Shown here: positions 22,516-62,590 of the stretch, in pieces
Layout: every line of letters starts with the position of its first letter
Position numbering within the stretch: position 1 is the stretch's first letter
From: Eledone cirrhosa
Lineage: Eukaryota
DNA length: 64,000 bases
Assembly: GCA_964016885.1 (NCBI GenBank)
Contig: OZ024743.1
Location: 73,904,001-73,968,000, forward strand
Reading direction: 5' to 3'
Position numbers and translations under genes: made by a program
The notes under the pieces: generated by a model
The model's input: only the letters and a program-made list of their open reading frames with translations
What the model was told of the DNA's origin: nothing
The model's database searches: none

Positions 22516-23126
22516 ATATATATATATAAATATATAACGAAGGAATTGTGGTAAGGAACCAGATGGACCATAACGCACCAAAGTACTCAATACTTAGCGT
22601 AGTAGAGTGGGTAATAGGAACAAGTATGACCCCGACGGCAGAGCTCAAGCCGTTTCGACAGCTATACCAATGAGAAATTTGGTGATTGTAGAAGTGGAGT
22701 AGTAACCAGAAATTGTTTTTATATATTTATTTCCTTATTTTTATAATGGGTTTTTTTTTTCTTACTCCCTTTCGATTTACCTATTCTTTCACACACCCCT
22801 CCTCTTCTCCAGTACACTTTTTTCGACCTTTTTACGTTATCCTTAGAATCTGCTGTATAGATTTCAATTTCAACGCTTCACTGGGTTTCTCCCACTCCCT
22901 CTTTGTTCTACGGCAAGTTCAGCCAACCCTACCTCCCACCAATTGTCATGATCTGTCTTTACAACAAATTTTTGACCAACCCTCTTGACAATTACTATCT
23001 TCCCATATAAAGTAATACCCCCTGAGAAGTTCGGCTATTTATTTACCAGGCTAAAAATTCTTATTTAGTTCAGAAATAGCTGTCGAAACGGCTTGAGCTC
23101 TGCCGTCGGGTTCATACTTGTTCCTA
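22516..23126. mobile_element. Fold-back PLE family A 3'-end insertion (short minus arm with tail, longer plus arm without tail) in (TA)n
   Basis: 22516-22665 is the reverse complement of about 40595-40722. 22666-23126 matches about 40188-40645. Confidence 0.85.
23017..23112 (+). ncRNA. Type I hammerhead-like ribozyme, family A (core CTGAGAA)
   Basis: acccc-CTGAGAA-stem II (cggctatt/aatagctg)-GAAA-cggc..gccg-TC-ggg. Confidence 0.65.
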
Positions 23127-23196
23127 TATATATATATATATATATATATATATATATATATATATATATATATATATATATATATATATATATATA

Positions 23197-25505
23197 TAGA
23201 AAGGATGAATATAAAATGAAAGTGCTTTTGTTAAAAAAGGAATTTATTAGGTATTGACATATGTTTCTGTAACAGACCGAATACCTATGTATCGCTGCTT
23301 GCGTAATCATATAATGTTAGCAAGTATTCGATAGCAAATGTATAATCAGTTGTCACTTCTTCAGAGATTTTGGATAAACTGGATAAAATCAGAAAAATTG
23401 AAGTATTTATATTAGTAAAAGAGGAAGGAACAGAGGGGATAGAATATGACAGATGGTAAAATAATTTACTGCTAAACAAGTATATAATGGGTTTTTAATG
23501 AGAATACCATGAGTAAATCTAAATAAGAATTTTGGGGGTGCCGATTTTAATCTCTACTTGACCAACTGGACAGTGGACAGGGCTGGTCATTTGGTGCAGT
23601 AGTATTAATCATAAAGTGTCAATTGGGGAAGGGGGAGATTTCGATTGCTACTAAATAACATCAATGCTAGTGGTCAGCTGGTATTTGCTCTAGGGAATTG
23701 AATCAAAAAATCAGAAATCTCATTTTATCTATAGCAGTTTGTATTAAAAGGTAAATAATAGAAGAGTTGATAGAATTAAGACTAATAAAGAATGTTCATA
23801 TCTATTTTGACAATCAAACGGGGATAGAGACAGGCGTTCAATCCTGGTAGTATTTATAATATGAAAATGTAGATTTTAAGCGATGGTTACAGTATAACGA
23901 TCGCTCTATTCTGTTATTTAATAAAATGTTTTTGGATTTCATAATACAAAATAATTCTACATTACATAATCTACAAAATTCCTGTCCATTGGAATATGGG
24001 GGGGCAGTCGCTATTATATCCCATTTTAGGTGAAATTGTTGGTTATTTTCACGCAGCTGCCAAGCCTTGTCTGCGAGTGTTGTTACATAACGCTGGTTTT
24101 CATGTTTTATCGAATAACGATGTCTATAAAGGCGTGATTTAAAGGAGGTGGCTGTAGATCCCACATAGTACCACTTCTGTCTATCCGATTCGATAGTACA
24201 TTTGTATACGATGTTGCGTTCAAGACACTGGTTGTTCAACGGACACATTCCTGGTTGGACACAGTTGCAATTACAATTTTGCGTTGTTGTATTGCCATGG
24301 CAATACAACAACGCAAAATTGTAATTGCAACTGTGTCCAACCAGGAATGTGTCCGTTGAACAACCAGTGTCTTGAACGCAACATCGTATACAAATGTACT
24401 ATCGAATCGGATAGACAGAAGTGGTACTATGTGGGATCTACAGCCACCTCCTTTAAATCACGCCTTTATAGACATCGTTATTCGATAAAACATGAAAACC
24501 AGCGTTATGTAACAACACTCGCAGACAAGGCTTGGCAGCTGCGTGAAAATAACCAACAATTTCACCTAAAATGGGATATAATAGCGACTGCCCCCCCATA
24601 TTCCAATGGACAGGAATTTTGTAGATTATGTAATGTAGAATTATTTTGTATTATGAAATCCAAAAACATTTTATTAAATAACAGAATAGAGCGATCGTTA
24701 TACTGTAACCATCGCTTAAAATCTACATTTTCATATTATAAATACTACCAGGATTGAACGCCTGTCTCTATCCCCGTTTGATTGTCAAAATAGATATGAA
24801 CATTCTTTATTAGTCTTAATTCTATCAACTCTTCTATTATTTACCTTTTAATACAAACTGCTATAGATAAAATGAGATTTCTGATTTTTTGATTCAATTC
24901 CCTAGAGCAAATACCAGCTGACCACTAGCATTGATGTTATTTAGTAGCAATCGAAATCTCCCCCTTCCCCAATTGACACTTTATGATTAATACTACTGCA
25001 CCAAATGACCAGCCCTGTCCACTGTCCAGTTGGTCAAGTAGAGATTAAAATCGGCACCCCCAAAATTCTTATTTAGATTTACTCATGGTATTCTCATTAA
25101 AAACCCATTATATACTTGTTTAGCAGTAAATTATTTTACCATCTGTCATATTCTATCCCCTCTGTTCCTTCCTCTTTTACTAATATAAATACTTCAATTT
25201 TTCTGATTTTATCCAGTTTATCCAAAATCTCTGAAGAAGTGACAACTGATTATACATTTGCTATCGAATACTTGCTAACATTATATGATTACGCAAGCAG
25301 CGATACATAGGTATTCGGTCTGTTACAGAAACATATGTCAATACCTAATAAATTCCTTTTTTAACAAAAGCACTTTCATTTTATATTCATCCTTTCTACA
25401 TTTCTCCGGAATATAATTTATACTCGTTGAGCAAACCTGCACGTACGCTGTTCATCTCTAACGTAACGATATATTATCACTACATTATTGATAACCTGAA
25501 ATTTT
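23197..25505. mobile_element. 2.2-kb palindromic Naiad-type PLE 3'-end insertion (centre 24297/24298), plus a ~105-nt tail on the right
   Basis: Identical ORFs at mirror coordinates (23838-24311 minus, 24284-24757 plus). Arms span 23197-25398. (TA)n on both sides. Confidence 0.92.
24298..24757 (+). pseudogene. GIY-YIG endonuclease domain of a Naiad-type Penelope-like element (5'-truncated; mirrored on the minus strand)
   Basis: CNCxxxxxCPL, NIVY...YVGST..FKSR, CRLCxxE, LLN..E...CNH. Confidence 0.88.
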
Positions 25506-25710
25506 ATATATATATATATATATATATATTAATAAAAAACAATGAATAAAAACAAAGAACAAGTTCCTTATATTAAAAAATTCATCATTTTACGCTCGTT
25601 TCTAGGATATATATTTGTGTTGGTATATATATCATATAGATCTATGTAAACATATTACAAACTATCAGAGGAAATATACATACCTTCACATATATATGCT
25701 GTCTTCAGAA

Positions 25711-61062: not shown

Positions 61063-61136
61063 GCTGTGATATATATTTCAATGACAACACTGGCCACACT
61101 GTTCTGTGTGCGAGTGTCGTGTCATCATCAGACAGC
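61063..61136 (-). ncRNA. Type I hammerhead ribozyme, family G (second copy)
   Basis: Same architecture as 59778-59851. Confidence 0.82.
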
Positions 61137-61384
61137 TTGTTACATAATAAGGTTGTTTCCGAGGCAATCCAAATTGAATCGACATGGGAACGGATGAAGT
61201 TCGTGCTTTTGGTTTTTTCATCCGTTCCCTTGTGAGTACCAATTCACCCCCACGGATCTGCGCAAGTGCATGTTCGAGGGAAGTTGACCATTAGCACCGC
61301 AGATTTCAACGAAATTCGCTGTTAGTGGCCCACCTATGCCCTGCCAAAGTTTACTGCTACCCATCACTACTGTGGCAGTCAGCC

Positions 61385-62590
61385 ATATTATATTATAATA
61401 TCATGTTTATGTTTGCACGATTGAAAAGGGAAAGATAACTCCAATCTTGTTTGTTAACCGTTAAATGTGATGAATGATTTACTCAGAAAATATACAGAGA
61501 AAATTATATATTATTTCGTGTGAGATTAATTATTTTAGTCGAAAGGTGTGTGAAAGTTTGAAGATCAAAAGGAGAGGAAAAACGTAATGTGCATTTCGAA
61601 GAACTATCGTAAAGAGGATAAATTTTCAGAATGTCAATTAAAGATTATCAATCTACATCTAAAAAAATATATTTAGAGGGATATCATTAGGAAAATAATG
61701 TTAGAAGTAAAAAATATAAAAAAATGTATAAAAAATATATATATTAAAAAAAATTAAAAATTAATGAAAAAATTAAGGTAAAAATAGTAGAAATATTAAA
61801 AAATTAAGAAGGAAGATCATTTAAAAAAAATTTACATTTAAATAGGATCATTTTCAAGGTGTGTAAGATATAGTCAAGTGTAATGAATATCATAAATTAA
61901 AAATACTTCTGAAAGTGGAATTTTGGCGATGTCTGCAAAAAGAAAATAATTCTGTTTTAAGATTAATAGTGTTACAGAATCTTGATAAAGCCATATTTCG
62001 GTATACAGGTGCTTTCGAAATCGTTCCCCAAGATATTGAATAGTCTATATTGTTGTCTTTTAAGTTCCAAATTAAATGTGAAAGTGAAGTGGAATATTTT
62101 TTATCCGATCTCTTAAATGTGCGTTTATGTTTATACCAGCGTTCTTTGAATTTTGTAGAAGTGGAACCAATATAAGTAAATACTTTGTCTCTAGTTTTAA
62201 CAGTGCATTTATAAAGTACGTTTTTGTCTAAGCAATTATTTTTAAATTTAAGTTTCTATTATTAATTCTATTTATATTTTCTCTTATCCCTATTTATATT
62301 TTCTCTTATCCCTTCACTATCCAAGGAAAACTTAAACCGTTAAGGTATCTTTTCTTGGTTATGTCAAAATTTATAAAACAAACTTTGTATTTTATCTGAT
62401 GAAAGCGTACCAAAGTTTTGGTATCCTTGAAATATATATAATAGAATAAATATGGTTTTATAAATATAGTTTCCATTTATTTAATATCATTGAATATTAT
62501 ATTCCAGAAAACTTGTTGGGTGCTCTGAATCAATTATAAACATTTATATTTGTTGAATTAACAACAAATTAAATATCACTTTTCCTTATA
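61385..62590. mobile_element. Family B-like Naiad remnant: minus-strand GIY-YIG fragment (about 61920-62250) joined to an inverted 3' end (about 62330-62590)
   Basis: Minus-strand translation NNCLDKNVLYKCTVKTRDKVFTYIGSTSTKFKERWYKH...LIWNLKD. This ORF is not in the supplied track. Confidence 0.8.
62388..62448 (+). ncRNA. Type I hammerhead ribozyme, family B
   Basis: tattttat-CTGATGA-aagcgtaccaaagttttggtatcctt-GAAA-tatata-TA-atagaata. Confidence 0.82.

Follow-up and report, generated by a model that had tools for sequence, protein, structure and literature searches.

The 64,000-nucleotide stretch of the Eledone cirrhosa genome analysed here, referred to as the window (OZ024743.1, positions 73904001-73968000), carries a series of inverted insertions of Penelope-like elements (PLEs) in (TA)n arrays, in which two 5′-truncated copies are joined centrally, one ending at a fixed site and the other extending further by a tail. 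The tail-less end is denoted S (short) and the tail-bearing end L (long), and arm length is counted in nucleotides upstream of S. Such insertions probably arise through two primings on one RNA molecule near its 5′ end, followed by run-off and end joining of the two complementary DNAs (cDNAs), with an occasional 5′-to-3′ jump regenerating the pseudo-long terminal repeats (pseudo-LTRs) of the elements. This reading is carried by insertions that hold one end of each type, by end sequences (TA, TAT or ATAT) that match the target, by variants and stopping classes shared between the two arms, and by joints leading from a common stop zone into the open reading frame (ORF). The architecture of the insertions is already known; the new part is the in-genome evidence for coupling to one RNA, 5′ run-off and 5′-to-3′ jumps.

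Structures in the window were defined by self-alignment of each segment between (TA)n runs. An earlier note on this DNA had counted about fifteen inverted structures and named nine, of which eight (22516, 23197, 30943, 33474, 41181, 43676, 55491 and 56034) were recovered as described, with one arm ending at its family-specific site beside (TA)n and the other adding a tail of 59-108 nt. These and the accompanying copies are as follows.

22529..23124: inverted insertion of a diverged subfamily of family A (structure 22516); long-end arm at 22529-22665 on the minus strand, short-end arm to 23124 on the plus strand; tail of 80 nt, with 8 nt of mismatch additionally in the overhang.
23199..25504: family G, with Hydra-clade motifs (structure 23197); perfect palindrome of 2,198 bp with a 108-nt tail at the right and GIY-YIG frames directed outward.
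30945..33135: inverted insertion of family A1 (structure 30943); left short-end arm of 1,346 nt upstream, long-end arm of 776 nt, 3-nt overlap at the joint near 32274, 80-nt tail at 33056-33135.
33476..34701: inverted insertion of family H (structure 33474), 70-nt tail at the right.
34728..34992: old A-like inverted insertion, additional to the nine named, 84-nt tail at the left.
36530..38356: inverted insertion of partial fit, with overhangs of 20 and 35 nt and its left end outside long (TA)n.
38645..40721, plus strand: lone copy of family A, 5′-truncated and not inverted, which terminates in a long end and is flanked by (TA)n at either side.
41181..43066: inverted insertion of family E, 60-nt tail at the left; both arms hold a canonical hammerhead core, and the protein motifs are CX4CxxC and CCHH.
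43680..44795: inverted insertion of family E (structure 43676), tail at the right; overhangs of 63 and 3 nt, 9-nt insert at the joint.
55493..55650: minimal fold-back of family A1 (structure 55491); short arm of 47 nt, long arm of 37 nt plus an 80-nt tail, 6-nt overlap.
56036..56239: minimal fold-back of family F (structure 56034), 66-nt tail at the right.

The tail lies on the left in some structures and on the right in others, so that either arm may carry it, and the 3′ ends of 23197 face outward, since the GIY-YIG reading frames of both its arms are directed outward; both points had been claimed. The ninth named structure, 36530, is inverted as stated, and fits the rule only in part. Inversion was likewise seen across the larger set of about fifteen, while a rule common to all does not hold: the fold-back at 56729-57024, situated between (TA)n runs, is symmetric, with overhangs of 0 and 0, and self-comparison of the window did not demonstrate the short-plus-long type at the inverted structures 26259, 29314, 35033, 48134 and 56518. 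The palindrome at 29314-29703 (390 bp, 99.5% identity) lies outside the rule as tested.

Genome-wide counts were obtained on the 3.0-Gb assembly with exact sequence patterns, each of which, when reversed as a control, gave 0 matches. The family A motif occurs 14,680 times, with 7,349 short ends and 7,737 copies continuing into the tail, while 27,081, 5,032, 1,097 and 945 matches were returned for families E, F, G and H, respectively. Read-through of the long site into an intact 719-amino acid ORF is seen in 227 family A copies, which speaks for internal priming. The arms end at two sharp positions per family, as had been predicted: 111 of 242 family A arms at +3 and another 111 at +83, in a sample partly picked by end-specific patterns, and 58 and 45 of 119 family E arms at +3 and +63. 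In the older family H, the S end is spread over about 20 nt.

The pairing of these ends was followed per locus in family A by listing every S match (93) and every tail match (100) in the first 58 Mb of C1. An inverted long partner accompanies 76/93 short ends and a short partner 0/93; the rest comprise eight single ends with (TA)n on both sides and nine that were not assigned. The tail matches comprise 95 true L ends, two read-through copies and three ending elsewhere, and the 95 L ends have a short partner in 70 cases and a long partner in none, with 12 single and 13 unassigned. Exact pairs among the matches listed were 64 short-plus-long, no short-plus-short and two long-plus-long, one of the latter being a read-through copy and the other ending 7 nt into the tail. 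A pair tally over all retrieved DNA for families A, E, F and G, with E and F loci enriched for pairs and not for end type, gave 171/174 pairs of S with L, the exceptions being one S+S and two L+L. The predicted rule of one end of each type per insertion is thus well borne out. The accompanying claim that inversion is the dominant outcome stands for the young family A and for family E, with lower proportions in family F and the older family H: among the first 30 matches per family, an inverted S+L partner within 1.5 kb was found for 20/30 in E, about half (15/30) in F and 13/30 in H. Most partners of family G lie beyond the 1.5-kb flanks. Minimal fold-backs of family H (L362-L390) often turn about 55-67 nt inside the motif end, which by eye is the 5′ edge of a canonical CTGATGA hammerhead core.

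These structures could in principle be assembly artefacts, or a few fold-backs resembling miniature inverted-repeat transposable elements (MITEs) that were amplified as units. Assembly errors can give perfect palindromes, and the joint of 23197 is known from the assembly only. Raw reads of three other samples, however, join (TA)n exactly at S and L (2,596-2,907 and 7,398-10,149 reads at the two sites) and contain joints between opposite strands, in which a point 45-62 nt upstream is linked to S or to the tail; one of these (6849 to 6902) is covered by 54, 60 and 74 reads. A lack of independent read support, named by the earlier note as refuting, does not apply to these ends and joints. Furthermore, 97 tight family A pairs hold 84 distinct junctions, none occurring more than 3 times, and their ends are asymmetric; unit amplification of a MITE-like fold-back was rejected on this basis, and the explanation as a whole is scarcely credible. 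A drop in read depth upstream of L051:6852 was set aside as evidence, because read ends pile up there at an AATT site, probably a restriction cut made during library preparation.

The geometry of the arms bears on the number of primings. In the 97 tight family A pairs, used for the fine analysis of joints, the S arm is more than 15 nt longer than the L arm in 21 and the L arm in 2, and in family E the tail-less arm is the longer, likewise by more than 15 nt, in 12 and the tailed arm the longer in 11 of 28 pairs. A tail-less arm that outreaches the tailed arm cannot be its fold-back copy, and therefore two primings are needed. This contradicts, for those insertions, the notion of a single priming followed by fold-back self-copying of the cDNA and trimming of one tail by the endonuclease, which follows ideas in PMC3846280 and PMC8557442. 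Self-copying would yield identical arms of correlated length; the perfect palindrome of 23197 would suit it, as would a modest enrichment of joint overlaps of at least 3 nt (8/62 versus 2.7% expected, p = 2.7e-4). The arms nevertheless scarcely overlap in 8 of the 97 pairs, where the L arm ends at or before S (4 within 6 nt of S and 4 inside the tail), and at the joints the arms overlap by 0-1 nt in 43 pairs and by 2-6 nt in 19, the other 35 carrying inserts. As such, self-copying is a very improbable general explanation, which could still hold for a minority of perfect palindromes. Among inserts of at least 5 nt, 17/19 contain a 5-mer from an element end, a figure without a null model. The (TA)n array itself likely pre-existed, because interruptions of the repeat left and right of the insertion share one genome strand in 8/10 informative pairs; a target-site duplication is unreadable within (TA)n.

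The two primings are not independent, because the arms share both their stopping class and their variants. Family A inserts have a median size of 190 bp, and their arms tend to stop in one zone, 51-63 nt upstream of S (75/97 short arms and 61/97 long arms). A minor stop at 16-19 nt, which coincides with the GUC of a predicted U3-A8 hammerhead, is common to both arms, the partner stopping there likewise in 5/6 cases versus 2/91 others (p = 1.9e-6). In the up to 103 family A pairs used for variants and long arms, short arms exceeding 75 nt have a long partner arm in 8/9 cases versus 0/94 (p = 3.8e-11). At the variant position 21 the arms are discordant in 2/82 pairs against 34.8 expected, and at two further sites in 3/92 against 21.6 and 0/92 against 12.9, while the own partner is the closest or joint-closest arm in 5/5 family A and 13/15 family E long pairs. 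The claim that each insertion results from two target-primed events thus survives, with the correction that the two are not independent.

Coupling of this kind might also come from a dimeric enzyme holding two RNAs of one source locus, with one subunit on the short site and the other on the long. This dual priming would account for one end of each type and for shared variants with no need to displace a strand. A dimer is predicted for the Poseidon protein (PMC11167929), and PLE hammerheads may act as dimers and could cut both RNAs together (PMC4209133). It does not, however, predict that long arms come paired, nor that four long arms stop within 6 nt of S and four in the tail, as a collision on one molecule would, and it sits poorly with a private joint between positions -17 and +145 that both arms of one insertion (L351) traverse. 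This shared joint is the strongest single sign of one template molecule, and we regard two separate RNAs as unlikely, if the most serious alternative.

The stop zone and the hammerhead of family A map in the window as follows.

32944..33049, plus strand: hammerhead of family A1, predicted as type I, with the U3-A8 variant core UUGAGAA...GAAA; the cut is expected at 33038/33039, 17 nt upstream of S.
32993..33005, plus strand: zone in which the family A RNA putatively begins, 51-63 nt upstream of S, from arm stops and direct joints; candidate start bases A at 32998 and 33003.

That the zone may mark the 5′ end of the RNA is suggested by the 46 read-through family A loci, eight of which hold a direct joint leading from the ORF (+145 to +901) back to a new start at 55-61. 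Of the other loci, one resumes at 17-19, another forms a 299-bp array, and in two the joints lie outside the region. In L312, L315, L332 and L336 the joint is not crossed by the partner arm, which ends in the zone or short of it; this fits a jump on linear RNA, and direct-joint copies also show S or L priming on a molecule reaching past L. A position at about +145, a TTTT run ahead of the ATG, recurs as an apparent RNA 3′ end in the jump joints of L317, L318, L350 and L351, possibly reflecting a short abundant transcript. Alternatively, the stop at 51-63 could be a structural or protein roadblock in the hammerhead loop encountered during twin priming, since a predicted hairpin within stem II has the zone on its 3′ strand, the stops spread over 12 nt and a transcript start there is predicted from DNA. 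Arms should, however, pass a pause independently, yet passage is coupled, and the eight direct joints reach the same zone from unrelated ORF positions. Furthermore, inserts that follow positions 53 and 58 begin with a C in 12/18 cases versus 6/28 elsewhere (p = 0.0046, post hoc), and a count by eye over about 63 loci of single-arm family A copies gave C six times and G twice after position 58; an extra C would fit, weakly, the copying of an RNA cap. A roadblock is accordingly improbable, more so than two separate RNAs. A search for a shared hairpin at the two start sites in folds of 52-nt windows from four families found none.

A family A array at L341:789-3023 (C2, approximately 356.030-356.032 Mb) consists of seven near-identical 299-bp units, each joining family A positions -116..-78 and -59..+204. 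The unit holds a whole hammerhead with a shortened loop and both start sites, and the array terminates in an L end; it looks like a newly born retrozyme-like array derived from a PLE.

Under the preferred reading of two primings on one RNA, the enzyme of the element would cut both strands of (TA)n, and each end of the cut target would prime reverse transcription at the fixed short and long sites of a single RNA molecule. In family A both sites would lie near the transcript 5′ end, so that the cDNAs would usually run off 51-63 nt upstream of S, or at 17 following hammerhead cleavage. Joining of the two cDNA ends, using little homology or none and frequently adding short templated inserts, would then yield a fold-back of about 190 bp. 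The enzyme starting at the long site would displace the short-site cDNA and may at times stall on reaching the short site or ahead of it. Where both arms are long, the template would have been continuous across the stop zone, as in a read-through multimer, in a circle or at the 3′ copy of the sites. In retroviruses, minus-strand strong-stop DNA is primed near the RNA 5′ end, runs off, and is transferred to the 3′ end, which regenerates the terminal repeat. A similar occasional jump of the PLE enzyme from the RNA 5′ end to the 3′ end would, on a full transcript, rebuild the pseudo-LTR and the partial tandem. If the model holds, run-off and transfer would be alike in the two systems; here the primer would be chromosomal and not a tRNA, priming would occur twice, no integrase would be involved, and the element falls outside the LTR class. 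A stronger version, which we put forward tentatively and hold to be possible rather than probable, is that this is a chromosome-primed double strong-stop replication near a capped 5′ end, in which full copies and pseudo-LTRs would arise only by the 5′-to-3′ jump, the hammerhead would set the 3′ end 17 nt upstream of S and leave a repeat of about 40 nt, the 190-bp fold-backs would be failed transfers, and jumps would also found retrozyme-like arrays.

Several points weigh against the one-RNA reading. Most long arms pass the short site, so that strand displacement is required, and like ends occur in three of the 174 pairs. Variants would also be shared between arms were only a single subfamily active in any period, or were palindrome arms homogenised after insertion. 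The pair tally gave broad arm lengths and no tight stop zone in families E and G, and an apparent stop peak at 70 in family F was set aside, as it coincides with the divergence of a subfamily from the reference used. Both the RNA start site and the hammerhead cut of family A are predicted from DNA; the three-stem fold of the hammerhead region (L051) is no stabler than shuffled sequences (z = 0.86), and Rfam gave no hammerhead, only noise of microRNA-like hairpins, among the 150 of 159 matches listed. The extra-C signal is post hoc, and CATATA is frequent in these (TA)n arrays. Furthermore, in vitro the start sites are equal between strands, and hammerhead cutting is not required (PMC11167929). 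Canonical hammerhead cores with stems were found by motif scan in family E.

The elements themselves carry the hallmarks of PLEs. An intact family A copy at C1:11226213-11232023 consists of an inverted long-end arm, a partial tandem, the 719-amino acid ORF and a short end, thus combining the partial tandems or pseudo-LTRs, inverted 5′ copy and one-sided tail typical of these elements; the unit of the family is 3.5 kb. Family G also has an intact ORF, of 773 amino acids, and a YRDD motif is present in both. A single ORF with reverse transcriptase and GIY-YIG endonuclease was found: GIY-YIG Pfam matches were obtained on window fragments of G and E, one just below the cut-off, and the top protein homologue bears PF01541, while the full-length A and G proteins gave no significant Pfam match. 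By eye, and compared with the description in PMC8557442, both proteins show RWR (A) or RWK, DKT, a CxCx5C linker, CxxC and CxH, without CCHH, and on these motifs families A and G fit the Hydra clade of PLEs. Besides the motifs, they have in common with that clade one ORF, an endonuclease region at the C-terminus and insertion into (TA)n; they differ in the family A unit of 3.5 kb, against less than 3 kb in the clade (PMC8557442), and in the U3-A8 variant of the predicted family A hammerhead core. The families had been called unrelated, which is true at the DNA level only, given the Hydra-clade protein motifs of both A and G. Family E, with a CIDKKCITC (CX4CxxC) linker and C..C..H..H, both read by eye, and a C-terminal endonuclease, is of a Neptune/Nematis type in which the two are not separated. 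In A and G the S and L sites precede the ATG, and in E they fall within the ORF start. Their first bases are TAT at either site in A, TA at S and TAT at L in G, and ATAT at either site in E, matching a (TA)n primer. Family A also forms multi-unit head-to-tail arrays (L342-L346, L354 and L360) with a period of 3,531-3,546 bp and 97-100% identity to the reference unit, as would be expected from templates that are circles or multimers. One such array begins at its 5′ end with about 50 tandem copies of a 55-bp ORF fragment (L345:4720-7578), which suggest repeated slippage or the copying of a tiny circle.

Part of the short-plus-long rule has been published before, namely the shape of the insertions and the existence of two start sites (PMC8557442, PMC3846280, PMC11167929). 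Insertions of endonuclease-bearing PLEs with an inverted head-to-head copy, a one-sided tail and a (TA)n bias have been described (PMC8557442, PMC3846280), and the present structures share with them the 5′-truncated inverted copy, the single tail, the pseudo-LTR tandems (PMC2377424) and the target. For Poseidon of Anolis, in vitro work has shown that both strands are cut and extended and that reverse transcription has two internal starts, one at each border of the tail (PMC11167929). The present families resemble it in the two internal starts and, under the preferred reading, in the cutting and extension of both strands; in Poseidon initiation is described as non-homologous to the target, whereas the sites checked here (A, G and E) begin with TA, TAT or ATAT matching (TA)n. 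The nearest mechanisms are twin priming and dual priming of L1, where both target ends likewise prime cDNA to give a head-to-head inversion with outward 3′ ends (PMC2837659). In L1 the second site is variable and the arms are mostly non-overlapping, whereas the sites here are fixed and internal, the arms overlap, and the inversion is the usual outcome. Penelope transcription starts inside the pseudo-LTR, whose regeneration has no obvious known mechanism according to PMC2377424, and the formation of tandem and inverted repeats together with pseudo-LTR regeneration is given as an open question (PMC2377424, PMC8557442). Circular templates have been proposed for PLE tandems, and the U3-A8 hammerhead variant has been described (PMC4209133). 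In the open full-text literature, subscription papers lying outside its coverage, no paper was found on strict pairing, 5′ run-off or 5′-to-3′ jumps in PLEs.

Additional repeats can be observed in the window. A direct duplication of 229 bp (99% identity; 35305-35533 and 36300-36528) lies directly left of the 36530 insertion, and at 59719-60099, 61004-61384 and 61890-62514 a 381-bp direct repeat (96%) lies beside a GIY-YIG-like remnant akin to the 36530 family, probably as a partial tandem. A broken minus-strand PLE at 52433-54946 retains a CxCx5C motif and reverse transcriptase remnants, three pieces of which gave no Pfam match when tested. Two broken elements resembling long interspersed nuclear elements are located at 2995-5732 and 14284-18156, the first with a Pfam RVT_1 match and the second recognised by eye. 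A repeat of about 180 bp resembling a short interspersed nuclear element is present in many copies (8008, 25711, 27463, 47273 and 48134-48534), one of them as a 400-bp inverted pair, and minisatellites with 49-bp and 14-bp units occupy 48966-49578 and 46890-47707.

The genome of E. cirrhosa offers thousands of young, independent insertion events alongside intact ORFs, and the reading yields predictions at the level of single bases, namely priming sites 80 nt apart, two candidate RNA start bases, a ribozyme cut and one RNA per insertion. On this reading, many small (TA)n hairpins that repeat-finding tools might label as MITEs are retrotransposition products. If true, the one-RNA reading would explain how Penelope-like elements rebuild their repeats.

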